Source: Candidatus Kuenenbacteria bacterium (GTDB lineage: Bacteria > Patescibacteriota > Patescibacteriia > UBA2196 > GWA2-42-15). From it: a DNA stretch of 64,000 nucleotides. A program made the translations under genes and the position numbers. Location: the NCBI GenBank assembly GCA_012797775.1, contig JAAZOM010000006.1, positions 12,815-76,814 on the forward strand, in the 5' to 3' direction. The first letter of the stretch is position 1; every line of letters starts with the position of its first letter. Below, one piece after another: positions 9,277 to 20,330 of this stretch. The notes beneath the pieces were generated by a model that saw only the letters and a list, made by a program, of their open reading frames with translations, was not told the origin of the DNA and made no database searches.

Positions 9277-9312
9277 GCCAAAAGAACCGCCTTCAAAAGC
9301 GGTTCTTTTATT
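9277..9312 (+). terminator. Intrinsic terminator.
   Basis: aaaagaaccgcc-ttcaaaa-gcggttctttt hairpin followed by a T-run, just after the stop of the 8703-9254 gene. Confidence 0.7.
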
Positions 9313-9542: not shown

Positions 9543-10619
9543 TTATTTTATGGCCGCTTTCAGCCATTCTTTTGCGTTAGTTCTCATTATGCCTTTTATT
9601 TGCTCATCTTGAAAGCCAAATCGTTCAGAAAGCGCGTCGGCAATTTTTACCAAATCTTCTGGCCCCTTTATATCCGTGGTTAGTCCCGGCGGCAATCCGC
9701 CAAAATCACTGCCAATTGCCAAGCGATTTGGTTGCCCAGTTTTTTGGGCTACCTGATCTATCCTTCGGGCTATATGTTCTGCGCCCGAAAAAAATGGTTG
9801 GGAAACACCTAATCCTATCATGCCGCCCATTTTAATAATCCTTTCAACCTCTTCTTCCTTGAGAGCCCTTTCGCCAATCCTGTTAATCCAATCAGCCGAA
9901 ATGTCTTCTTCGGTGGAGCCATGCGTGTATGACACGCGATTGCCGGCATCTGCTTCCTCCGCTATATCCATCACTTCTTGCCTAGTTTTATAACCAGAAT
10001 GTGCCAAATCAACCACTAAATGATTATCCAAAAAATATTTTACCACCTGCCGACCGAATTGTGTCAGGCCACCTTTGCTGGTGATAGTATTCTGTGTCTC
10101 GTCACCACCATACTGTAAACCAAATATTTTTATGCCTGCATCAACCATTTTCTTTGCGTCTTCACCAGAGTGGATTAAATGCGCTCCGCCCTCCAGCGTC
10201 ATTACCAAATTATTTTTTTCCTGAAAATCTCCGCCTCCTCTAATTATTTGCATGCCAGGGATTGCTCCTAGCCCGTGGTATTTTTCCGTCATTTCTATTA
10301 GTTCTCTAAATCTCTGGTTTTGTTCCGGGTTTACTTCATTTTGATATAAATATTTATCAAAAACTGAGGACACAACCACGTCGTAATATCTATTAATTAA
10401 TTCCGCCATCAATTCGTTATATTCGCCCCAACTCAATTCCTCAGCCTTTTTTCCAAATTTTTCCTCTACTTGAGATTTGGTTATGCCAAACTGCTCTATT
10501 CTGTCTGTGATATTGGCACCGTAGATTCTCTCGCCATTGTCTCCAATTTTATATTCCTGCCCTTCTCCTTTGGGTCGGTATGCGTCTGTATGCAGAGTCG
10601 AAGTCAGTTGCTCGTTCAT
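9543..10619 (-). CDS. Membrane dipeptidase homologue (peptidase family M19-like).
   Basis: LAIGSDFGGLPPG resembles the M19 GxGSDFDG block. VVDLAHSG and SYTHGST resemble the VDLSH and SHS blocks. An extra roughly 100-aa N-terminal region is present. Confidence 0.6.
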   Translation of the reverse strand: MNEQLTSTLHTDAYRPKGEGQEYKIGDNGERIYGANITDRIEQFGITKSQVEEKFGKKAEELSWGEYNELMAELINRYYDVVVSSVFDKYLYQNEVNPEQNQRFRELIEMTEKYHGLGAIPGMQIIRGGGDFQEKNNLVMTLEGGAHLIHSGEDAKKMVDAGIKIFGLQYGGDETQNTITSKGGLTQFGRQVVKYFLDNHLVVDLAHSGYKTRQEVMDIAEEADAGNRVSYTHGSTEEDISADWINRIGERALKEEEVERIIKMGGMIGLGVSQPFFSGAEHIARRIDQVAQKTGQPNRLAIGSDFGGLPPGLTTDIKGPEDLVKIADALSERFGFQDEQIKGIMRTNAKEWLKAAIK

Positions 10620-10623
10620 ATTT

Positions 10624-12084
10624 TTATGTTAAATTATTAAATTTATTTTCAAAGATTTTTTTTAGATCAGCTTCTGTATATGGGAGAGGCACGGCATTTT
10701 CTAAATTTCCATATTTACTCAAACCATAGGTATAAGCAAAAGCTAGATAGGGGATTAATAGATCTTTGTATTGAATGCGACCTATTTTGTTTAGTACTCT
10801 CTTGTCAAAACCGCCATTAAAAATAACATCAAAAGCGTAAAGTTCCTTCCAGCCACCATGGCCATCAGAACCGAGGGTTATCGAAGCCACATTCATACTA
10901 TTCAAGACGATTTTTTCTGAAAGTTGGTATTCGTCAGGAAAATCTTCTTTCAATAGTTCTCTGATGGCCCTGACCATGCGTGTAGTATATTCCAAAGAAA
11001 AACCAGTCAACGTCTTCATGCCCAAATAAACTATTACTAGGGCAAATTTTAAAAGCATACAGGGGATTAATTTTCTCTCTGTTAATAATTTAATAATTGC
11101 TTCTGGCATTATTGGTATTCTGTGTTCTGCGCCAACCAAATATTCCCCTTCGACCGTCAGGCGCACACGCTTGTTGTCATCATCCACCAACCAAAACAAT
11201 TGGCTACCGACTTCTTTTTCATCGTTCCAAGCGCCGGGTATACCTTCAAATTTTTTTAAAGCCCTTGTTCTAAAATTATTATCAAAAATCATTTGATAAA
11301 TAAAACTATTTTGTTGTTTCCTGATTAATGCTATTAAATAGTCAGTAAAAACCGTGTCCTCAATAACCACCAGATTGGCAATTTGTTTCCGGTCTTCTAG
11401 CGGGAATAATCTTTTCCATAAATAAAAATTTATTTTGGTCATTTCATCGCCCAAATATTGGCAACCGGACAAATCCAAACCTCTTAATTCCCCCGTTATT
11501 TCTTCCAAAAATTTTTGCTCCTCGGTATTAAATAAATGCCATTGATGTTTTTCTTTTAATCTGCCAGCTATATCAAAATCATATTTGGGCATGCCCCACA
11601 TCAGCTTGTGTTCATATTTTTTGGGGAATAAATTTATTTTTTTGTCATGGAAAATTATTCCTCTTTTATGAAAGGGATCGTTAAACGGTACTTTGGAAGT
11701 GGCAAAAGTCAAAATGTCACCGAACTCTTCTCGATTATATAGCTTATAAAAATTTGTTAAGGCGTGAATCGAGGTCAAAATCGGGTGGTTCAAAATCCCA
11801 TGGTGATCCATACTGCCGGCTATTAGACCCCCCTCATCAGTTAAGCGTAAGTCAATATTTTTTCTTTCCCCCGGATTAAAAATAGATTCTATTTTATTCC
11901 TAATTAATATTTTTAGTTCTTTTTGCCGCTCGATGTGTGGCGCAGGTGCATCGTAAGTATTGATCCTCCTAGAATATTCGCTCAAGGTTTCCTCACTACG
12001 AAAAAACTGTGCCAAGGTCGGCATCAGTTCCACTACCAGATTAGCCATGTTATTTAATCCTGGATCATCGTAAAATTTTTCCAT
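10624..12084 (-). CDS. Hypothetical protein, 486 aa.
   Basis: Long ORF with no recognisable motifs. Start trimmed to the internal Met (MEKFYDD...) at 12084 so that it does not run into the tRNA at 12090-12164. Confidence 0.5.
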   Translation of the reverse strand: MEKFYDDPGLNNMANLVVELMPTLAQFFRSEETLSEYSRRINTYDAPAPHIERQKELKILIRNKIESIFNPGERKNIDLRLTDEGGLIAGSMDHHGILNHPILTSIHALTNFYKLYNREEFGDILTFATSKVPFNDPFHKRGIIFHDKKINLFPKKYEHKLMWGMPKYDFDIAGRLKEKHQWHLFNTEEQKFLEEITGELRGLDLSGCQYLGDEMTKINFYLWKRLFPLEDRKQIANLVVIEDTVFTDYLIALIRKQQNSFIYQMIFDNNFRTRALKKFEGIPGAWNDEKEVGSQLFWLVDDDNKRVRLTVEGEYLVGAEHRIPIMPEAIIKLLTERKLIPCMLLKFALVIVYLGMKTLTGFSLEYTTRMVRAIRELLKEDFPDEYQLSEKIVLNSMNVASITLGSDGHGGWKELYAFDVIFNGGFDKRVLNKIGRIQYKDLLIPYLAFAYTYGLSKYGNLENAVPLPYTEADLKKIFENKFNNLT

Positions 12085-12089
12085 ATTTT

Positions 12090-12164
12090 TGGCGGCCCGT
12101 GAGGGAATCAAACCCCCGTCTCCCTAAAAACATTAGGGTGTCCTAAACACTAGACGAACAGGCC
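12090..12164 (-). tRNA. tRNA, probably Asn (anticodon GTT), with atypical U37 and U56.
   Basis: Manual cloverleaf: GGCCTGT/ACGGGCC acceptor stem, GTCT/GGAC D stem, CCCTA-ATGTTTT-TAGGG anticodon arm, GGGGG-TTTGATT-CCCTC T arm, discriminator G and encoded CCA. Total 75 nt. Confidence 0.6.
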
Positions 12165-12207: not shown

Positions 12208-13674
12208 TTATTTTATTTTCCTCACTATTCCCTTGTCCGCATCTACCTCTACCAGATCCCCGTCTCGTAAAATCTGCGTAGCAACTTTAGTGCCGATCAC
12301 ACACGGAACAGCCAACTCCCTAGCTACGATTGCCGCGTGGCAAGTTATTCCACCCATATCAGTCACAATTGCCGCCGCCTTTTTCATAGCGGGTACAACA
12401 CTGGGGTTTGTCATGTGTGAGACTAAAACATTTCCAGCGTGCATTTTAGCCATCTCTTGCATGGTATTAATAATTTTTACTCTTCCTTTTGCACTACCTC
12501 CATAAGCTGTTTGCCCCCGCAACTCTTCCTCGGATGCAATCTCTTCTTGGTATTTTTGAATTTTTATTTTTTTCATTATTTGTTTAGCTTCCTTGCCAAC
12601 CCAGCAAGCTGTTTTCCCCTTATGGGCTATGGTCAAGCTGTAATTCTGTCTCCCTGTTGTCATTTTGGCCAACTTGTTATTTTTAGACAGTGCTTGTTTA
12701 AAATCGCTAGGCAGTAAAAATCTGACTTGTTCTAAAGTGACTCCTGCCCGCTTAGCGACCTCTCTGAAAATATTTTCCATAGCATAATAACTAAAAAACT
12801 GGGCATCTTTGCTGTATAATCTGACGGACAGAGAATCCCTTACTATTTTAAAAATCTTTTCATGTGTTTTCCCAACATTGTATAAATGCTCAACCTCTCT
12901 TTGCTCCCTTAATAATTTTGCTGTTTCTCGTTCTAGTTTTTTCTCATAATCTTCATATTTTATTTTTTCTAAAGATTCTTCAAAATCTGCCAACATTAAT
13001 ATTTTACCTTGTAGCCCATATTCTAGCCACTCATATTTTTTGGCGTGCCGTTTCAGGAGCTTCTTTTGCACCCCATTATTTTTTACTTTGGCAATTTTGG
13101 ACAACTCTTTTTTTTCTTTTATCCAATTGCTTTCTCCTGTCGGAGTAGTCAAAATTCTCAACGCCTCCTGCGGTGGGTACTTTATTTTTCTTGTCTCTTG
13201 GTATATTTCATCCAAATAATCATGCAAGTAATTAGTAATAATATTCTCCGGCGTCTCCAAAATCCACATCGGTAGCCTCGGTACATGCACACTAGCCTGC
13301 CCAGATTGAAAAAGTTTTATCCATTTTATCAGTTCTCTGTTACTCAATTTTTCCGCTCTTATCTTTTTTATAATTTTGCTTAACTTTAGTAGCTTATCGG
13401 AGTTATCTCGGTTAATATCATGTAGCTTGTCCCACAATTTTGGATTATTAAATAAAAGCTGAAAACTACTTCGGTTTACTCGATCATACGATTCCTTCGA
13501 GCAAAAAAGATTACAGGCTGATTTGATATATTCAGCTCCGGCGTATTCTATAGGTTCAAACCCCCATTTTTTAGGTGTCAATGTTGCGCCTTCCCAATTA
13601 ATAGCCACAAATAAATAATTTGCGTAATCTTCTCGTTCAATTAGCTCAAATTTTTTATGGTAGGGTATTTTCAT
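12208..13674 (-). CDS. PEP-utilising-enzyme mobile (phosphohistidine) domain protein with an unknown approximately 380-aa N-terminal region. Paralog 2.
   Basis: The C-terminal ~100 aa (GGITCHAAIVARELAVPCVIGTKVAT...GDLVEVDADKGIVRKIK) is the swivel His domain of PEP synthase, PPDK and rifampin phosphotransferase. Confidence 0.7.
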   Translation of the reverse strand: MKIPYHKKFELIEREDYANYLFVAINWEGATLTPKKWGFEPIEYAGAEYIKSACNLFCSKESYDRVNRSSFQLLFNNPKLWDKLHDINRDNSDKLLKLSKIIKKIRAEKLSNRELIKWIKLFQSGQASVHVPRLPMWILETPENIITNYLHDYLDEIYQETRKIKYPPQEALRILTTPTGESNWIKEKKELSKIAKVKNNGVQKKLLKRHAKKYEWLEYGLQGKILMLADFEESLEKIKYEDYEKKLERETAKLLREQREVEHLYNVGKTHEKIFKIVRDSLSVRLYSKDAQFFSYYAMENIFREVAKRAGVTLEQVRFLLPSDFKQALSKNNKLAKMTTGRQNYSLTIAHKGKTACWVGKEAKQIMKKIKIQKYQEEIASEEELRGQTAYGGSAKGRVKIINTMQEMAKMHAGNVLVSHMTNPSVVPAMKKAAAIVTDMGGITCHAAIVARELAVPCVIGTKVATQILRDGDLVEVDADKGIVRKIK

Positions 13675-13759
13675 ATTTTTATTGTTTTATTTTTTACAAC
13701 GTCGTTATCGGCCTAAATCGCTAGATTCATTTCATCTTTGGTTATCTCTTGTCGCATTA

Positions 13760-13781
13760 TTCTGTACCCATCTGTACAGAA
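13760..13781. promoter_or_regulatory. Perfect 8-bp inverted repeat TTCTGTAC-N6-GTACAGAA, an operator-like site.
   Basis: Seen directly in the sequence about 90 nt upstream of the start of the 12208-13674 gene. Confidence 0.35.
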
Positions 13782-13836
13782 TAAAATAATGTCAAATTTT
13801 CTAGCACTGGGTGAAGACCAAATTCGTTTATTTTTT

Positions 13837-13879
13837 AGTCTAAATATTAGTCTAAAGTTTGGTCTAATCTATAGTCTAA
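13837..13879. repeat. Four direct repeats of RGTCTAA with an exact 12-bp phase.
   Basis: agtctaa, agtctaa, ggtctaa and agtctaa start at 13837, 13849, 13861 and 13873. They lie between two PEP-utiliser genes and overlap the stop of the upstream one. Confidence 0.6.
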
Positions 13880-14907
13880 TTTTTCATTTTTCTCACTATT
13901 CCTTTATTCGCATCCACTTCTACCAGATCGCCATCTTTTAGAGCTTTCGTCGCGATTTTTGTCCCCACAATGCAAGGAATTTTTAATTCTCTAGAAATTA
14001 TGGCCGCATGACAGGTTGCTCCCCCTTCATCAGTAATAATTGCTGCAGCTTTTTGAATAATTGGTATGAACATTTGATTTGTCATGGTGGCGACCAGAAT
14101 GTCATTTTTTTTAATTTTTGGAAAATCAGACTTATTTTTTATAATTTTAACCCGCCCATTTTTTATTCCCGGAAACGCTATAGCCCCCCTTAGGTTTTTA
14201 TTTAAATTAAATTTATTTTTTTCTTTTAGACCCAGAGAAACGGCCATTTTTTTAGCTTCATTCCCAATCACAAGTAAATTTTTATCCGCATAATATAAAT
14301 AAGCTGTCTGACGCGCGGCCGCCCTACTATAATCAATTAGTTTGTTAGAAATCAATAGTTGTATTTCCATTAAGCTCAGGCTGTTAATTATTTTTGTGTT
14401 TATATTTTTAAAACTGCGAGCAGTTTTAAAAATATAAACGCCAAGCTCTACCCATATACCCTGAATCTTATGCTTAATTATTTTTTGACGATACTCTGGA
14501 TTTTCCTCCAAGAATTTTTTATTTAAAGCGTATCCTATATAAGCACATATAATATAGTAAGCCCAGTATTTTATCATTATATGTTTTATTTTTTTATGAT
14601 CAAAACGTAGGGATTTCCCATCTATAATTTTTTGAATTTTTTTTTCGCAATCGTTTATTTTATTGAAATAAGTTAGATATTTTTTGGGATAAATTTTTAT
14701 CTCCCGCTCGATTTTTTTTATTATTCTTTTGTATTGAAAAACATTTCGGTATATTTCGCAGACATTGTTTTCGGCAAAATAATAAACACGACTAAAGGGT
14801 GATTTTAAAATTCTCCCAACCAATTTATAAGCCCCCAAATGAGTTTCCATCAAAAAGAAAGGCAGTTCCCTGGTAATTTTTTCATATTGATCTCGCTTTA
14901 TAGGCAT
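13876..14907 (-). CDS. PEP-utilising-enzyme mobile (phosphohistidine) domain protein. Paralog 1.
   Basis: The C-terminus (GGATCHAAIISRELKIPCIVGTKIAT...GDLVEVDANKGIVRKMK) is nearly identical to the C-terminus of 12208-13674. The N-terminal ~240 aa is of unknown function. Confidence 0.7.
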   Translation of the reverse strand: MPIKRDQYEKITRELPFFLMETHLGAYKLVGRILKSPFSRVYYFAENNVCEIYRNVFQYKRIIKKIEREIKIYPKKYLTYFNKINDCEKKIQKIIDGKSLRFDHKKIKHIMIKYWAYYIICAYIGYALNKKFLEENPEYRQKIIKHKIQGIWVELGVYIFKTARSFKNINTKIINSLSLMEIQLLISNKLIDYSRAAARQTAYLYYADKNLLVIGNEAKKMAVSLGLKEKNKFNLNKNLRGAIAFPGIKNGRVKIIKNKSDFPKIKKNDILVATMTNQMFIPIIQKAAAIITDEGGATCHAAIISRELKIPCIVGTKIATKALKDGDLVEVDANKGIVRKMKN

Positions 14908-14967
14908 ACATTATAAATTATTTTTTTGGCCATTTTTAGGATTATTATCGTCTGCCCGCCACATTTA

Positions 14968-15906
14968 CTACAAAGTAGTAATCGGTCGGCTCTGGGTAAT
15001 ATACAAGTTATTTTTCTCCATCGCCCACTCAATATCGCAGGGAAAGCCATAATGTTTTTCAATTTGCCCGCACAATTTGGCTAGCTCAATGATTTTTTTG
15101 CCTGGCAATTTTTGTTTCTCCTGGATATTTTTGGCCACCTTGGCGTGAATAGTTACCTCGCCTTTTTTGGTGATCATCATAACTTGGCTCGCAATATTAA
15201 TATCCATTATTGACCAATCGCGCTTGTCCAGCACGTAAGAATCTGGTGTTATCTGCCCAGACACGATCGCCTCACCGAGCCCAAAGCCTGCTTCCAAAAT
15301 CATCTGGTTTTTGTCTTTAGTCACCGGATGGACCGTAAAACAGATTCCCGACACCTCTGATTGCACCATCTTTTGTACGACCACTGCGACAGACACATGG
15401 GATTTGAGGAGTTTTTTCTCATGGCGATAAAAAATCGCCCTTGGGGTAAACAAAGACGACCAGCATTTTTTGACATTATTCAATAATTCTTTTTCTGTTG
15501 TATTGAGATAGGTTTCCAATTCCCCAGCCCAGGAAGCAGTCTTAGAATCTTCCGCTGTGGCCGAACTTCGAACTGCCACATAAGGCGCTTTGAGTTTTTT
15601 AAATTCACTCGTTATTTCTTTGCCCAGATCAGCTGGGAATTTTGTATCAGCAATCATATCTCGGATTTCATTGGACGCTCGATCCACCGAATTAGTGTCT
15701 TTATAATTTACCTTATCCAGCTCTGCCTGAATTTCTTGTTTCAAATCAGTTTCTTCCAAAAATCGATCAAAGGCCGTAGCCAAAACCACAAAGCCCGGCG
15801 GCACTGGAATTTTGGCGTTTAGCATTTCTCCAAGCGACGCGCCCTTGCCCCCAGCAATCCCTACATCTTTTTTAGTAATTTCTCGGAAATTTTTGGTGAA
15901 TTGCAT
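14968..15906 (-). CDS. Stand-alone PEP/pyruvate-binding (PPDK_N-type ATP-grasp) domain protein.
   Basis: VGIAGGKGASLGEM...IPVPPGFVVLATAF...VAVRSSATAEDSKTASWAGELETYLN matches the N-terminal nucleotide-binding domain of PEP synthase and rifampin phosphotransferase. Confidence 0.75.
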   Translation of the reverse strand: MQFTKNFREITKKDVGIAGGKGASLGEMLNAKIPVPPGFVVLATAFDRFLEETDLKQEIQAELDKVNYKDTNSVDRASNEIRDMIADTKFPADLGKEITSEFKKLKAPYVAVRSSATAEDSKTASWAGELETYLNTTEKELLNNVKKCWSSLFTPRAIFYRHEKKLLKSHVSVAVVVQKMVQSEVSGICFTVHPVTKDKNQMILEAGFGLGEAIVSGQITPDSYVLDKRDWSIMDINIASQVMMITKKGEVTIHAKVAKNIQEKQKLPGKKIIELAKLCGQIEKHYGFPCDIEWAMEKNNLYITQSRPITTL

Positions 15907-16090: not shown

Positions 16091-16125
16091 AAAAAGAGCG
16101 CAGTCGCCCACGCTCTTTTTTTCTG
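16091..16125. terminator. Bidirectional intrinsic terminator.
   Basis: aaaaaagagcg-cagtcgccca-cgctcttttttt hairpin, downstream of the 16166-17764 gene. Confidence 0.65.
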
Positions 16126-16165: not shown

Positions 16166-17764
16166 TTAGTTGCAGCTGCCTGCCGGCGCGCTTGTCGCAC
16201 TCTGGCCTGTCAGCGTTTTCTCACAGCCAGCTACATCATTGTACTGGCAGAAATTTTTTCTGACTGTTTCGGCATCGATACCATTAAAAGTATAACGGTT
16301 ATTGACCATCCAGGTCGGACTGGCGCCGATATTCAATTCATTGGCCAGTTTTATATTTTCACTCAAGAGTTTTTTACCCTCATCGCCAGTAGCGCAGGCC
16401 TTGATCTTCCCGAAATTGGCCGCGCAGGTCGTCCAGTCGCCCTTGATATCTTTGTTGCGGCACCAGACATAATCCATAAAATTACTTGGGTAATATTTGG
16501 CCGCACATAACTCGCGGATATTTTCATCTACCTCACCCTGCCCATGGAGAGATTGGAAGGTGCCGTCAGCCTTTTCATTGGCAATATAGTAAAGATTGAA
16601 ATCAATATTCTGGCCAAAATTGTCCAGCACTTCTTTCATCGCATTCATCGCCTGGATACCATAGGGGCACTCGCTCATCACAAATAGATCCAATCTTTTT
16701 GTCTCTTCTGTCCGACAACCTAGAAACCCCGCGCAGTCGCTGTCATCGCAGTCCACTTGACCATTGCCCGTATCATCAGTCTTGTTATCGCAGATTTCTT
16801 TGGTCGGGTTGAAGCTCGCGCCAATAGCTAGATTGTACAGATCTTCTGTTTGCGTCAGATATCTTTCTACTTGGCTATATCCTTCGGCCTCTTTTACTTT
16901 CTCCTCAAAAAGCACGGCTGGCAAAAGAGCCAATTTGTATTTTTCATAAAACTTCTTGCCTTCTTCGGTGTTATAATCTTTTCTTTCAATTTTGATCTTT
17001 GGGAAAACGCCCGTGAGCTGGCTCTCTAGCCCGGCCGTGTCGCACTCTTCTTTCTGACAGCGGCTATCACCGAGGATATAGGCGGTAAATTCTTTGTCTT
17101 GGGGCAAATCACCGCAGACCTTTGATGGTCTGTTATTGGTCGCCGCACAGATGGCGCGACCAAGGGCCGTCTCTGTCCTCTGGCCAGTGTATTGTTTGCC
17201 GGCGATATAAAATGTTGGGCTGCCGGCCACATTGAGCGCCTGGGCTTTTTCTAGACTGGTAGTCAAAAGACTGGCCGACTCCTCGCCTTCGGCGCAGGTT
17301 TTTATACTTTCAAAATTGGCTCCGATTTCTTTGGCACAAGATTCAAAGCTGGATTTTAGATCCTGATAATTTTTGTTCTGGCAAGCCAGATAATCCCAAA
17401 ACTTATCCGGGTATTTTGTTTTGACACACAATTGGTAACGGTTGCCCTCGACCTCGTTTGGGCCGTGCAAGGATTGGAAGCTGCCGTCTGCTCCCTTGTC
17501 AGCGATGTATTCCACATTAAAATTAACCACCTCTTTGAAATCCGGGATGATTTTATAAACCAATTCCTCGGCTTGTGAGCCATAAGGACACTGGCTCATC
17601 ACATAGAGATCAAAATCGATCTTTTCACCACCCCCATTTTTACCCGCCTTGGTGGCGATATAGCCGCCGATGGCCACTACGATGATGAGAATGGCCAAAA
17701 ACAATATGCCGCGCCCACCGCTCTTTTTTGGCGTGAGAGGGGCGTCTTTTCGCATTTCTTCCAT
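16166..17764 (-). CDS. Signal-anchored protein with two tandem thioredoxin-fold (DsbA/GILT-like) domains carrying a CPYG motif.
   Basis: N-terminal TM helix. A roughly 200-aa module is present twice: DLYVMSQCPYG...FNVEYIA...GSFQSLHG and DLFVMSECPYG...FNLYYIA...GTFQSLHG. The protein is Cys-rich throughout. Confidence 0.55.
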   Translation of the reverse strand: MEEMRKDAPLTPKKSGGRGILFLAILIIVVAIGGYIATKAGKNGGGEKIDFDLYVMSQCPYGSQAEELVYKIIPDFKEVVNFNVEYIADKGADGSFQSLHGPNEVEGNRYQLCVKTKYPDKFWDYLACQNKNYQDLKSSFESCAKEIGANFESIKTCAEGEESASLLTTSLEKAQALNVAGSPTFYIAGKQYTGQRTETALGRAICAATNNRPSKVCGDLPQDKEFTAYILGDSRCQKEECDTAGLESQLTGVFPKIKIERKDYNTEEGKKFYEKYKLALLPAVLFEEKVKEAEGYSQVERYLTQTEDLYNLAIGASFNPTKEICDNKTDDTGNGQVDCDDSDCAGFLGCRTEETKRLDLFVMSECPYGIQAMNAMKEVLDNFGQNIDFNLYYIANEKADGTFQSLHGQGEVDENIRELCAAKYYPSNFMDYVWCRNKDIKGDWTTCAANFGKIKACATGDEGKKLLSENIKLANELNIGASPTWMVNNRYTFNGIDAETVRKNFCQYNDVAGCEKTLTGQSATSAPAGSCN

Positions 17765-18422: not shown

Positions 18423-18477
18423 GACACATTTCTCCTTTTTGGTGATTGCAAATAAAATGAACTATTTTTATGTTAAA

Positions 18478-18506
18478 ATTATAGCATATTTATCTATTTT
18501 TGTCAA
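18478..18506 (-). promoter_or_regulatory. Consensus sigma70 promoter TTGACA-17-TGCTATAAT on the minus strand.
   Basis: The reverse complement reads TTGACAAAAATAGATAAATATGCTATAAT. It drives the 17931-18422 gene. The same extended -10 (ATATGCTATAAT) recurs at 33117-33145. Confidence 0.65.
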
Positions 18507-18622
18507 ATGGTTAAGTAATAAGCGAGGTAAGTAGTCATTAAGGTAAAAAACAAACGCTGATTTTATCGGTTTTCTATTATTTGCCTTATTTATCTCGCTT
18601 ATCGCTTATAGCGACCACTCTC

Positions 18623-18651
18623 TTGACAAGGGCCTGTCTTTGCTCTAAGAT
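18623..18651 (+). promoter_or_regulatory. Sigma70-like promoter TTGACA-17-TAAGAT.
   Basis: The -35 is at 18623-18628 and the -10 at 18646-18651, with a 17-nt spacer. It sits immediately upstream of the long structured non-coding region. Confidence 0.45.
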
Positions 18652-18657
18652 AATTTT

Positions 18658-19495
18658 ACAAACAAAATTGAAAATAATCTGGGTGGTGGTTCGTGGCACG
18701 GCTTTTGCTGCGTTGACATTCCACGTTGCGATTACCATCGCCCAGATTTGTTCTTTTAAAACGGGAGCTAGTTAGCTGGTTGATTACGACTGGCGGAGAC
18801 CCGCAGGGCGCATTATTGCCTTGTTGGCGGTCCCGTGGCTAGTACGGACATCGGCAGCTAGCTCCCTAAAATATAAAATGGGAGAGAGGGCTGGCGATAG
18901 CTGAAATTTGTCATTCGTTGGGCCGAGTCCTTTTGGCGACTTGGGCGAATGATCAGAGGACGGCCGTTGCCCTCCTCCCTTTATTTTACGACTGCGGACC
19001 AGTGTGCCAAAGAAATGGCTCACAGCTCGTGTGTTTCCCGAGCTTCGCGAGTGGCGTGTCTATTTTGCCGCCAGTTCCGCGGCCATCGGTACATTACCCC
19101 CAGCCTTCCAAGCGAGCGCACCACAGCATGGTGTTGGCAACCACTCTCCTCCCAAATACCTATGGCGAGGATGGAAGGACAGTTAGTCCCCATGGACTAG
19201 GTTCCGCAGTCGTTCATTTTTCGGCGGCATCTTGGCTTTCGACAAGACTGGTAACCCCCCTAACTCCAGCAGCTCACTGCCAGGGTGTCCGCCACTATTT
19301 TCGCTGCCTGATCAGCTCTTTGGGAATTGGTTCCCGAATGATCTTAGTCTCGGCTCTCAAAAGCGAGACGCAAAATAGGTCCAACCGTAAAGGTTGTGAG
19401 CTGGTAGCGAAATGCGGGTCACTCTTGCGCGCGTCAAAGCCGCAAATCGTGATCCCGCCGGGCCCTGATGACTTTGTCACCAGGGCCCCTTTTTT
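18658..19495 (+). ncRNA. Candidate large structured RNA (about 840 nt, about 58 percent GC) of unknown class.
   Basis: No credible ORF in any frame. Bounded by the promoter at 18623-18651 and the terminator at 19460-19495. Long-range stems include G-U wobbles: cugggUgGuggu (18679-18690) pairs with accaucgcccag (18735-18746), and gggagcuag..gcug (18764-18779) pairs with cagcuagcuccc (18855-18866). Confidence 0.45.
19460..19495 (+). terminator. Intrinsic terminator.
   Basis: gggccctg-atgactttgtcac-cagggccc hairpin followed by TTTTTT. Confidence 0.7.
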
Positions 19496-19496
19496 A

Positions 19497-19525
19497 TTGC
19501 CAAAAATATTTTTTTGATATATAAT
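19497..19525 (+). promoter_or_regulatory. Sigma70 promoter TTGCCA-17-TATAAT.
   Basis: The -35 is at 19497-19502 and the -10 TATAAT at 19520-19525, separated by exactly 17 nt. Confidence 0.55.
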
Positions 19526-19531
19526 ATTTTT

Positions 19532-19750
19532 ACCAAATAAAAAAACGGTCCGGCATTTCTCACTAGGTTATCCCCCTAGAGGCTGGTAGAGATTTTCACC
19601 ACTCCTTATTCTCTAGCAGTTTGAGATTTGCCGGGCCGCCAAATATCGGTCAGCAAATTGGCGCCTTTCTCTGGTGTCAGTAATGCTTGGCCAGCGGCAA
19701 ACGGAAAAATGGCCCCCTTCCCGGCCATAAAACCGTTTGCCGTTTTTTTA
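19532..19750 (+). ncRNA. Candidate structured small RNA of unknown class, about 220 nt.
   Basis: Runs from the promoter to the ggcaaacgg...ccgtttgcc hairpin plus T7 terminator at 19696-19750. Contains several internal hairpins (ctagag/ctctag, gccaa/ttggc, tggcc/ggcca). No ORF. Confidence 0.4.
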
Positions 19751-19756
19751 TTTCCC

Positions 19757-19886
19757 GTCATTGTGAGCGACCTAGCCTCTCAGGAGGGGAGCTTGGCAAT
19801 CTCGGGATTGCCCGCCTAGACTCGGCGAGGCTGGCTTCGTCGTGCTACTCCCTGCCTCGCCGGCAGGCGGGCTCGCAATGACAGAA
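19757..19886 (+). ncRNA. Candidate structured RNA domain of about 130 nt, closed by a 13-bp long-range stem.
   Basis: gucauugugagcg (19757-19769) pairs with cgcucgcaaugac (19874-19886). Nested stems ggcaauc/gauugcc and cggcgagg/ccucgccg lie inside. GC-rich with no ORF. Confidence 0.35.
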
Positions 19887-20330
19887 ATTTTTTGAAAAAA
19901 GTATTCATTTGACAATTTTTTGGGGTCTGTTAATATTAAATTATAAAGCTCCTTAAAAAAGTAAAAAAGCGGTCCGGCGGACCAGTCGCATTGTTCCATT
20001 GCAGTCGAAGATCGGGCATTCATGGCCTATATGTGTTCCACAATGGCGAAAAAAGAAGGGCAGCTTCATCGCCCATGCTTCTCATCCAAACCCTAATTCA
20101 CCATTCACCAAATTCCACTGCGAACCTTTTAACCGTTTCATCTCCATTCATGGTCCCGCCGGACCCGTTTTCTATAAAGGCAATCTTTGTTTATTTTAGT
20201 ACACCAAGTACTGAAAAAATGAAGGTTGCCGTTTTTTTATTTGCCAAAAAATTTAAAAGTGCTAAGGTAAAAGCACAAACCAAGGCAAAACTAAAATTTT
20301 GAAATACCCCAATTTGGGAGGGAGAGAAAG

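Follow-up and report, generated by a model that had tools for sequence, protein, structure and literature searches.

A stand-alone ATP-grasp gene with two phosphohistidine carriers in Candidatus Kuenenbacteria, a probable multi-carrier form of two-component dikinases

Can one ATP-binding protein charge several phosphohistidine carriers, each of which serves an acceptor of its own? This question is raised by a 64-kb stretch of DNA from Candidatus Kuenenbacteria, a member of the Candidate Phyla Radiation (CPR; Patescibacteria), the whole of which is referred to here as the window; all coordinates are those of the window unless another locus is named. On its minus strand, a gene encoding an ATP-grasp domain alone (14968-15906) is followed by two genes (13876-14907 and 12208-13674) whose products end in a swivel phosphohistidine domain and are called here the short and the long carrier. 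A sequence-only reading of this DNA had taken the three genes as a split module, related to phosphoenolpyruvate (PEP) synthase and rifampin phosphotransferase (RPH), in which one trans-acting ATP-grasp module serves two His-carriers, and the three open reading frames (ORFs) were confirmed at these positions. Gene linkage, the contrasting divergence of swivel and N-terminal domains and the occurrence of natural fusions provide comparative support for this proposal, and we estimate a probability of roughly two in three that the locus encodes an RPH-like water dikinase of the two-component type in a multi-carrier ('hub-and-spoke') form. The separation of the ATP-grasp and His domains is real, but it is not the departure that it had been taken for, as the same architecture has been characterised in HpeHI, CreHI and PpsAB (PMC12167813). 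A split class of RPH-like enzymes is thus already known and the locus is not categorically new; it is the number of carriers per ATP-grasp subunit that is at issue.

The ATP-grasp subunit and the two carriers

The ATP-grasp gene encodes a protein of 312 amino acids (aa) that consists of the PPDK_N domain alone (Pfam, E 2.9e-99) and terminates exactly at the boundary of the ATP-grasp domain, with the residues ...QSRPITTL. This protein aligns end to end with residues 5-316 of RPH-Lm (5fbs) and also with the PEP synthase 8a8e. Its best scores are against PEP synthase (8a8e, E 1e-74; NF005057, 346 bits), although the PpsA score of 346 bits lies below the NCBIfam cut-off of 598, as does that for the RPH model NF041857 (284.5 against a cut-off of 999). 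Residues K21 (15844-15846), R113 (15568-15570) and T132 (15511-15513) are the equivalents of RPH K22, R117 and T136, for which mutagenesis has demonstrated a need in the first phosphotransfer (PMC4844700). Every homolog at 51-89% identity is likewise a stand-alone protein, with a length of ~312-337 aa. Based on these alignments, the 312-aa protein is proposed as a shared ATP-binding 'hub' that would phosphorylate the histidines of the carriers.

The long carrier (488 aa) is divided into an RPH-type acceptor-binding region (residues ~1-384) and a swivel phosphohistidine domain (residues ~385-488, nucleotides (nt) 12211-12522; Pfam PEP-utilizers, residues 413-482, E 9e-25). The catalytic residue, His446 (12337-12339), occurs in the motif TDMGGITCH446AAIVAREL..PCVIGTK, within a T438-DMGGITC-H446 loop, and is invariant in the alignment of its family. 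Residues 214-484 align to residues ~592-865 of RPH-Lm, comprising the end of the rifampin (RIF)-binding domain and the swivel, and positions 609-861 of the NCBIfam RPH model align to residues 230-484. An AlphaFold2 model based on 41 homologs had a pLDDT of 92.4 and a pTM of 0.89. When this model was compared with the PDB by Foldseek, RPH-Lm alone was matched along the entire length (574-592 columns, E 5e-14, TMq 0.56), with the remaining matches confined to the swivel domain of ~100 residues. Block 9 of RPH (R666-E667-x-x-K670) aligns to R285-L-Y-S-K289 of the long carrier, with both basic residues of the acceptor site (R285, 12820-12822; K289, 12808-12810) being kept, and a basic pair at or adjacent to this position is kept in ~80-90% of 243 carriers, as read from a gappy alignment. 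Judged by alignment and predicted fold, the N-terminal region of the long carrier is an RPH-type acceptor-binding domain, with a full-length match to the RIF-binding domain plus swivel of RPH. Full-length orthologs (479-495 aa, 43-72% identity) were found in Magasanikbacteria, Taylorbacteria, Doudnabacteria and other CPR groups, with remoter relatives in Micrarchaeota and Woesearchaeota. The NCBI record for this gene (GYA54_00755) gives a protein of 353 aa, which covers 72% of the 488-aa product at 100% identity; the longer start used here is supported by the homologs and by the conserved N-terminal residues E13 and Y20.

The short carrier (343 aa) corresponds to NCBI GYA54_00760, with 100% identity over its whole length. 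A compact helical/beta N-terminal domain (residues ~1-239) is followed by the swivel (residues ~240-343, nt 13879-14190; Pfam PEP-utilizers, residues 265-336, E 3e-25), in which the catalytic His300 (14008-14010) lies in the motif TDEGGATCH300AAIISREL..PCIVGTK and in a T292-DEGGATC-H300 loop; this histidine is also invariant in its family alignment. The AlphaFold2 model had a pLDDT of 90.2 and its first fold match was again RPH-Lm (E 4e-11, 250-300 columns). Full-length relatives are of ~335-365 aa and 30-41% identity. Many of these are unnamed, and those with names are mainly from Woesearchaeota (one at 40%) and Nanoarchaeia/Nanoarchaeota (31-32%).

Both carriers contain the GG(A/I)TCHAAI motif quoted in the sequence-only reading. 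The description of their C-terminal 100 residues as near-identical was overstated, with identities of 57% over the last 100 residues and 64% over the last 75. The accompanying claim, that the N-terminal regions differ, was borne out: BLASTP gave 43% identity over 157 aa and no match upstream of these residues, while profile-profile comparison detected homology over the last ~192 residues only (149-343 of the short carrier and 296-488 of the long carrier). A common order of elements was nevertheless apparent in the two models, consisting of three N-terminal strands, a helical insert (of ~145 or ~285 residues), a beta-hairpin and the swivel, and the short carrier may contain a cut-down form of the RPH-type acceptor domain. 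These N-terminal regions had been called uncharacterised. The fold comparison, in which RPH-Lm was the best match for both carriers, over the full length for the long one and weakly for the short one, indicates that they are probably RPH-type acceptor-binding domains, with the weaker evidence for the short carrier.

Assignment of the carriers to a named family was not supported by the NCBIfam models. All scores for PpsA, RPH, PigC and Enzyme I were far below their cut-offs, with 129 bits (long carrier) and 121 bits (short carrier) against 598 for PpsA, 75.8 and 50.6 bits against 999 for the RPH model NF041857, and 37-45 bits against 342 for the Enzyme I models, which matched the swivel only. 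The PRK08296 models, which we take to represent the PpsA/HpeH type, also matched only the swivel, comprising the last 105-120 residues of the carriers, at 65-101 bits against cut-offs of 578-730. The three genes are part of a cluster of five co-oriented ORFs on the minus strand (312, 343, 488, 495 and 358 aa), of which the fourth encodes a member of an unannotated family and the fifth a homolog of M19 metallopeptidases. No further carrier or ATP-grasp copies were detected elsewhere in the 64-kb window by tblastn.

Carrier arrays and natural fusions in CPR bacteria and DPANN archaea

Related loci were chosen in two ways. Carrier-chosen loci consisted of the neighbourhoods of carrier homologs and of 78 loci from GTDB species representatives, fetched with 10 kb on either side (+/-10 kb), and swivel and ATP-grasp domains were marked across all of their ORFs. 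ATP-grasp-chosen loci consisted of 69 metagenome loci obtained with the ATP-grasp protein of the window, at 40-89% identity. The total sample comprised 150 loci from CPR bacteria and from archaea of the Diapherotrites, Parvarchaeota, Aenigmarchaeota, Nanoarchaeota and Nanohaloarchaeota (DPANN) group. Loci are referred to by sample number (L) where they need to be told apart.

The carrier-chosen loci contained 283 swivel ORFs and 36 ATP-grasp ORFs, with seven of the 36 being fused to swivel domains. Carriers were organized as tandem same-strand arrays of 2-11 genes and there was never more than one stand-alone ATP-grasp gene per locus. In dozens of loci, bacterial as well as archaeal, this gene was placed at the edge of the array, on one strand with 1-7 carriers; one ATP-grasp gene accompanied seven carriers in L018 and L049 and also in L070 of Micrarchaeota. 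Eleven carriers were present in L007 of Magasanikbacteria, and nine each in L076 of Pacearchaeota and L077 of Woesearchaeota. All of the ATP-grasp-chosen loci (69 of 69) had exactly one ATP-grasp domain, which was stand-alone in 68 and in the sole remaining case part of a fused 860-aa homolog at 40% identity. By manual count, 18 of the 24 long loci in this set had 1-6 adjacent same-strand carriers. The co-occurrence of ATP-grasp and carrier genes across CPR genomes, which the sequence-only reading had put forward as a check, recurs as a physical linkage in dozens of loci.

The strongest evidence obtained that one ATP-grasp domain cooperates with many carriers comes from four loci in which they are encoded as a single protein. 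In L079 (1646-10981, plus strand; contig JAQBRJ010000006.1), a metagenome-assembled genome of the Parcubacteria group, a single uninterrupted ORF of 3,111 codons encodes one ATP-grasp domain, 56% identical to that of the window, followed by seven modules that each consist of an N-terminal domain and a swivel. The seven comprise three long modules (465-505 aa) and four short ones (337-342 aa), matching the size classes of the two carriers in the window, and their swivels have a median identity of 63% as compared to 25% for the N-terminal domains. One ATP-grasp domain and two carrier modules were found in L042 (1,311 aa) and L063 (at least 1,166 aa), while in L037 of Nanoarchaeota (1,389 aa) two carrier modules precede a C-terminal ATP-grasp domain.

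Swivel and N-terminal domains also diverged to very different degrees within arrays. Swivel identity had a median of 55% (461 pairs). For the N-terminal domains, 283 of the 461 pairs had no BLAST match covering more than half of their length and the remainder had a median identity of 24%. A swivel that is far more conserved than the rest of the carrier is expected if the carriers have a shared docking partner. Clustering of the N-terminal domains (>=38% identity) separated 243 carriers into 155 groups. Each of the 14 largest orthogroups was represented by one copy per locus, as in one group whose 25 members came from 25 loci, and orthogroup c1, to which the long carrier of the window belongs, had one copy in each of 10 loci. 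This indicates that the arrays are collections of old, individually conserved specificities and not of recent duplicates. The relatives of the short carrier, together with the arrays in Micrarchaeota, Pacearchaeota and Woesearchaeota, suggest that carriers have been exchanged between CPR bacteria and DPANN archaea.

Two further observations concern the composition and surroundings of the arrays. L088 is the closest relative of the window, with an ATP-grasp protein that is 89% identical and flanking genes that are ~80% identical at the DNA level. At the position of the two carriers of the window (12208-14907), L088 (1089-2468) has one different, apparently frameshifted carrier and an S51 peptidase gene, indicating that carrier content turns over between close relatives. 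Separately, a group of neighbouring genes (median ~223 aa) was recurrently located just upstream of arrays (L015, L030, L031, L032, L053, L058, L070 and L075), mainly in Micrarchaeota and other DPANN archaea. The one representative that was scanned, a protein of 356 aa in L015, has an HTH_10 DNA-binding domain. The location of this gene upstream of archaeal carrier arrays suggests dedicated transcriptional control.

Proposed mechanism, possible acceptors and surrounding genes

In the mechanism that we propose, ATP would be bound by the 312-aa ATP-grasp protein, which would dock transiently on the conserved swivel of each carrier and phosphorylate His300 or His446 in trans, with AMP and phosphate as products by analogy with PEP synthase, pyruvate phosphate dikinase (PPDK) and RPH. 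The phosphorylated swivel would then swing back to the N-terminal RPH-type domain of its own carrier and hand the phosphate to an acceptor bound there. A different acceptor would be expected for each carrier, since the N-terminal domains have no relationship to one another in the first ~150 (short carrier) and ~295 (long carrier) residues. Phosphotransfer in trans, the stoichiometry of a dikinase and the use of small-molecule acceptors are all features that we infer.

Several points weigh against this multi-carrier mechanism. The case for trans-phosphorylation consists of homology and gene linkage, which is comparative evidence only, and HpeHI, in which a stable complex between the subunits was not detected (PMC12167813), implies that partner specificity is unreadable from sequence. 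Many arrays had no ATP-grasp gene inside the fetched +/-10 kb, including the array of 11 carriers in L007. The catalytic Glu667 of RPH is replaced by Leu286 in the long carrier. For the short carrier, the match to RPH-Lm is weak (TMq 0.29-0.35, rmsd 14-21 Å) and partly derived from the swivel, and the acceptor-site residues could not be reliably aligned, either by profile comparison or in the gappy alignment of 243 carriers. Co-expression of the two carriers may also fail, given that a 201-bp gap with an operator-like palindrome lies between their genes.

The ORFs embedded in arrays provide information about the likely acceptors. Among 113 array-embedded ORFs there were 12 HAD, seven His_Phos_1 and three HD genes, as compared to at most two HAD, at most two His_Phos_1 and three HD genes among 144 flanking ORFs. 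Phosphohydrolases are therefore enriched inside arrays (22 of 113 versus at most 7 of 144, Fisher p ~3e-4), and this was also the case for HAD and His_Phos_1 alone (Fisher p ~1e-4). A HAD orthogroup of ~202 aa was present in 13 loci (L003:8464-9078, L012:11483-12082, L018:13646-14305, L022:4958-5554, L056:9011-9727 and eight others) and abutted the preceding carrier in nine of the 13, at distances of -31 to +12 nt; this preceding carrier is the ortholog of the long carrier of the window in L003 and L012. Genes for a histidine phosphatase (~288 aa) and for HD proteins were likewise embedded in arrays. Small-molecule phosphoesters are common substrates of enzymes in the HAD, histidine-phosphatase and HD families, whose presence in the arrays favours small-molecule acceptors. 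The dipeptidase-type, HAD and histidine-phosphatase neighbours give a hint that these acceptors are small metabolites, for example peptides or sugar- or nucleoside-like compounds.

Of the alternatives, the one that survives best is a trans-acting phosphorelay with macromolecular acceptors, such as proteins, glycans or cell-envelope polymers, that would function in regulation or surface modification. Glucan water dikinases belong to the same superfamily, as does VadK, a metabolic regulator in Mycobacterium tuberculosis (PMC13400623), Enzyme I of the phosphotransferase system (PTS) hands its phosphate to a protein, and the number and diversity of carriers are unusual for metabolic kinases in genomes of ~1 Mb. 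We nevertheless regard this phosphorelay as rather unlikely, since the N-terminal domains are homologous to the small-molecule-binding domain of RPH and the characterised proteins with that domain (RPH, HpeH, CreH and PpsA) all use small molecules. The enrichment of HAD, histidine-phosphatase and HD genes inside arrays also argues against it, and no carbohydrate-binding or protein-interaction domains were detected in the cluster proteins by Pfam.

A second alternative shares the carriers with our preferred reading and replaces the donor: another compound, such as an acyl phosphate, PEP or some phosphorylated metabolite, would charge the carriers, which would move phosphate from one small molecule to another, and the ATP-grasp gene would be a neighbour by coincidence or would matter to one carrier only. 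This appears improbable in view of the fusions of one ATP-grasp domain with two or seven carrier modules, which argue for direct cooperation, and of the placement of ATP-grasp genes at the edges of same-strand arrays in dozens of bacterial and archaeal loci. The high conservation of swivels relative to the rest of the carriers points in the same direction, and no PEP-binding domain is available. On the other side stand the ability of HpeH alone to move phosphate from 4-phosphoacetophenone to acetovanillone (PMC12167813), the many arrays that lack an ATP-grasp gene within +/-10 kb, and L086, where an ATP-grasp homolog (71% identical) is located beside genes of the 495-aa and M19 families with no carrier nearby.

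It is very unlikely that the genes form a mobile, phage-derived or anti-phage defence module in which carrier turnover reflects an arms race. The differing carrier content of the window and L088 between flanks that are ~80% identical at the DNA level would fit such a module, and Bro-N and AbiEii genes do occasionally occur inside arrays. However, PADLOC gave no match for any of the five proteins, just two swivel-domain-only matches were found among 2.9 million viral contigs, and orthogroups that are 43-72% identical across CPR phyla and present once per locus are typical of old, stably maintained specificities and do not indicate a recent diversification. A fragmented PEP synthase (ppsA), or frameshift pseudogene pieces of one gene, which the sequence-only reading had named as the outcomes that would undo it, can be dismissed with near certainty: PEP synthase models and structures do give the ATP-grasp and swivel domains their highest scores (8a8e, E 1e-74 and 2e-26, respectively) and homologs do bear the name 'pyruvate, water dikinase', but Pfam placed the PEP/pyruvate TIM-barrel domain in none of the five cluster genes, the PpsA scores (346 and 129 bits) are well below the cut-off of 598, the gene order is wrong, each swivel is preceded by a 240-385-aa domain with an RPH-type fold in place of the ordinary central domain of PEP synthase, the ORFs are intact, conserved at full length across phyla and confidently folded (pLDDT 92.4 and 90.2), and stand-alone ATP-grasp genes of equal length are present in 68 of 69 related loci.

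A broader interpretation of the hub-and-spoke arrangement is put forward tentatively, as a possibility that we consider somewhat doubtful. CPR and DPANN genomes may contain a combinatorial kinase system in which one ATP-grasp 'charger' serves up to a dozen interchangeable carriers, all having separate acceptor pockets and exchanged between domains of life, and so supplies many small-molecule phosphorylations (for salvage, activation or detoxification) that would otherwise be lacking. The window, with one ATP-grasp gene and two carriers, would then represent a minimal system, whose carriers act on metabolites tied to the adjacent dipeptidase-type genes.

These adjacent genes, reported in the sequence-only reading as an unknown 495-aa protein and an M19-like gene in the same orientation, were both confirmed on the minus strand. 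The 358-aa product of the gene at 9543-10619 is a homolog of M19 (renal-dipeptidase-like) metallopeptidases (Pfam Peptidase_M19, E 7e-22). The 495-aa protein (10624-12111) has no relative of known function in Pfam, NCBIfam or the PDB, and its family includes 945 cluster representatives at profile level (E<=1e-3). Its interpretation as a degenerate carrier or as a known fold was rejected (hhalign probability 0.2%; no PDB or Pfam match). A second, paralogous subfamily exists, and one member of the family (P0360) is fused with the ATP-grasp domain of a RimK-like ligase. The family occurs together with the M19 gene in L086, L087 and L088, and in three cases (the window, L086 and L088) one of its genes adjoins a stand-alone ATP-grasp gene. 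The gene order is APH kinase, 495-aa family, M19, 495-aa family paralog and stand-alone ATP-grasp (71% identical to that of the window) in L086; 495-aa family, paralog, M19 and alanine racemase in L087; and ATP-grasp, the different and apparently frameshifted carrier, Peptidase_S51, 495-aa family and M19 in L088. These downstream genes suggest a peptide or amino-acid theme, while a functional tie of the 495-aa protein to the kinase is uncertain. TalE, another member of the superfamily, phosphorylates the amine of a dipeptide (PMC6482885), and by analogy this may serve as a pointer for the present locus, although as a lead only.

Intergenic gaps across the five genes, from ATP-grasp to M19, are 60, 201, 96 and 4 nt. 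The cluster is bracketed by terminator-like hairpins that were detected by a consensus scan on the minus strand. A strong, intrinsic-terminator-like hairpin (9279-9310), with a 14-bp stem followed by a T run, is located downstream of the M19 gene and is likely to mark the end of the transcription unit. A short, weak hairpin (16096-16109, 5-bp stem) between a thioredoxin-like gene and the ATP-grasp gene is likely to be its upstream boundary. The 495-aa gene is probably in one transcription unit with the long carrier. The long carrier gene is preceded by the 201-bp gap, where a repeat scan and reading of the sequence identified an inverted repeat with perfect 11-nt arms separated by 6 nt, TTATTCTGTAC-N6-GTACAGAATAA (13757-13784). 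This repeat is a candidate for an operator or an internal promoter region. As a candidate operator, it implies that the long carrier and the genes downstream may be separately regulated. The 10-bp palindrome TCTGTACAGA taken alone is not rarer than chance within the window; the 11-nt arms with their 6-nt spacer appear more notable than this palindrome. Four copies of TTAGAC were seen by eye at ~60-115 nt upstream of the inverted repeat.

Upstream of the kinase cluster, and kept apart from it by 259 nt and the terminator-like hairpin, a gene at 16166-17764 (minus strand) encodes a protein of 532 aa with an N-terminal hydrophobic segment, an acidic Cys-rich linker, two GILT-like stretches and other matches to the thioredoxin fold (DsbA-type). 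This protein is probably an extracytoplasmic thiol-disulfide oxidoreductase. Further upstream, a stretch of ~1.9 kb (18430-20330) has a GC content of ~0.50 as compared to a mean of ~0.42 for the window. No plausible ORF was found on either strand of this stretch, nor any rRNA, nor any Rfam match even at permissive thresholds, and the stretch may represent either a degraded element or a structured RNA of a kind not yet described.

Significance and comparison with known systems

Source annotations label the proteins of these loci as 'phosphoenolpyruvate synthase/pyruvate phosphate dikinase' or 'pyruvate, water dikinase', and metabolic reconstructions that rely on these labels would wrongly assign PEP synthesis or gluconeogenic capacity. 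Arrays of 5-11 genes occupy ~8-16 kb in CPR and DPANN genomes of ~1 Mb, where gene space is scarcest, which points to functions of probable importance for an episymbiotic way of life. The combination of a conserved swivel with a variable N-terminal domain, together with the 1:7 fusion, makes the system tractable both for finding new phosphorylated metabolites and for engineering kinase specificity. No description of the multi-carrier organization, of its scale in CPR and DPANN genomes or of the 1:7 megaprotein was found in the open-access subset of the literature.

Homology links HpeHI of Rhodococcus, CreHI and the phenylphosphate synthase PpsAB, each of which is a dikinase of two components (PMC12167813). 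In HpeHI, the ATP-grasp subunit HpeI is a homolog of the corresponding part of RPH, while HpeH contains RPH-type substrate-binding and swivel domains, and a His581Gln substitution in HpeH abolishes the activity of HpeHI (PMC12167813). The locus in the window resembles these systems in having a separate ATP-grasp subunit of ~35-40 kDa and a subunit with acceptor-binding and swivel domains, in the adjacency of their genes, and in the location of the catalytic His in a GG-x-x-x-H loop, this residue being required in the known systems. The known systems are 1:1 pairs, whereas here one ATP-grasp gene accompanies two carriers, with up to 11 carriers in related loci and seven in a fused form. The carriers are also shorter (343 and 488 aa versus ~610-640 aa), their swivel motif keeps the Thr-Cys-His of the PEP synthase type, and their hosts are CPR bacteria and DPANN archaea rather than degraders of aromatic compounds. 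The phenolic large subunits share ~45% pairwise identity, whereas the carriers of the window match PRK08296 in the swivel only and so are not orthologs.

Like RPH-Lm (5FBS, 5FBT, 5FBU and 5HV1; PMC4844700), the locus has all three domain types, with conserved equivalents of K22/R117/T136 in the ATP-grasp protein and, in the alignment of the long carrier, basic residues at R666 and K670. Unlike RPH-Lm, which is one polypeptide of 867 aa, the ATP-grasp domain is encoded by a separate gene and Glu667 is replaced by Leu; nothing suggests rifamycin as an acceptor. In sequence, the ATP-grasp and swivel domains come closest to PpsA and PPDK, with which they share the chemistry of a His-swivel dikinase, but the cluster lacks the PEP/pyruvate TIM-barrel of these enzymes and has an RPH-type helical domain before the swivel.

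TalE (PMC6482885), PigC/RedH, VadK (PMC13400623) and glucan water dikinase also combine an ATP-grasp domain and a swivel His with varied acceptor domains. The wide differences between these acceptor domains indicate that the acceptor module is the evolvable part. All of these enzymes are single polypeptides with one acceptor domain, and none has a shared ATP-grasp domain. Sharing of this kind is found in the logic of the PTS, in which one energy-coupling component feeds several specificity components via phosphohistidines and whose Enzyme I has an N-terminal domain homologous to the swivel of the carriers. The donor in the PTS is PEP and not ATP, no HPr or EII genes were present among the cluster genes, and specificity in the window lies on the swivel-bearing protein itself. 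If the hub-and-spoke reading is correct, the locus adds a one-to-many architecture to the recently recognised two-component dikinases, so far 1:1 enzymes in the catabolism of aromatic compounds, and this would represent a modular route to many kinases from one ATP-binding subunit.

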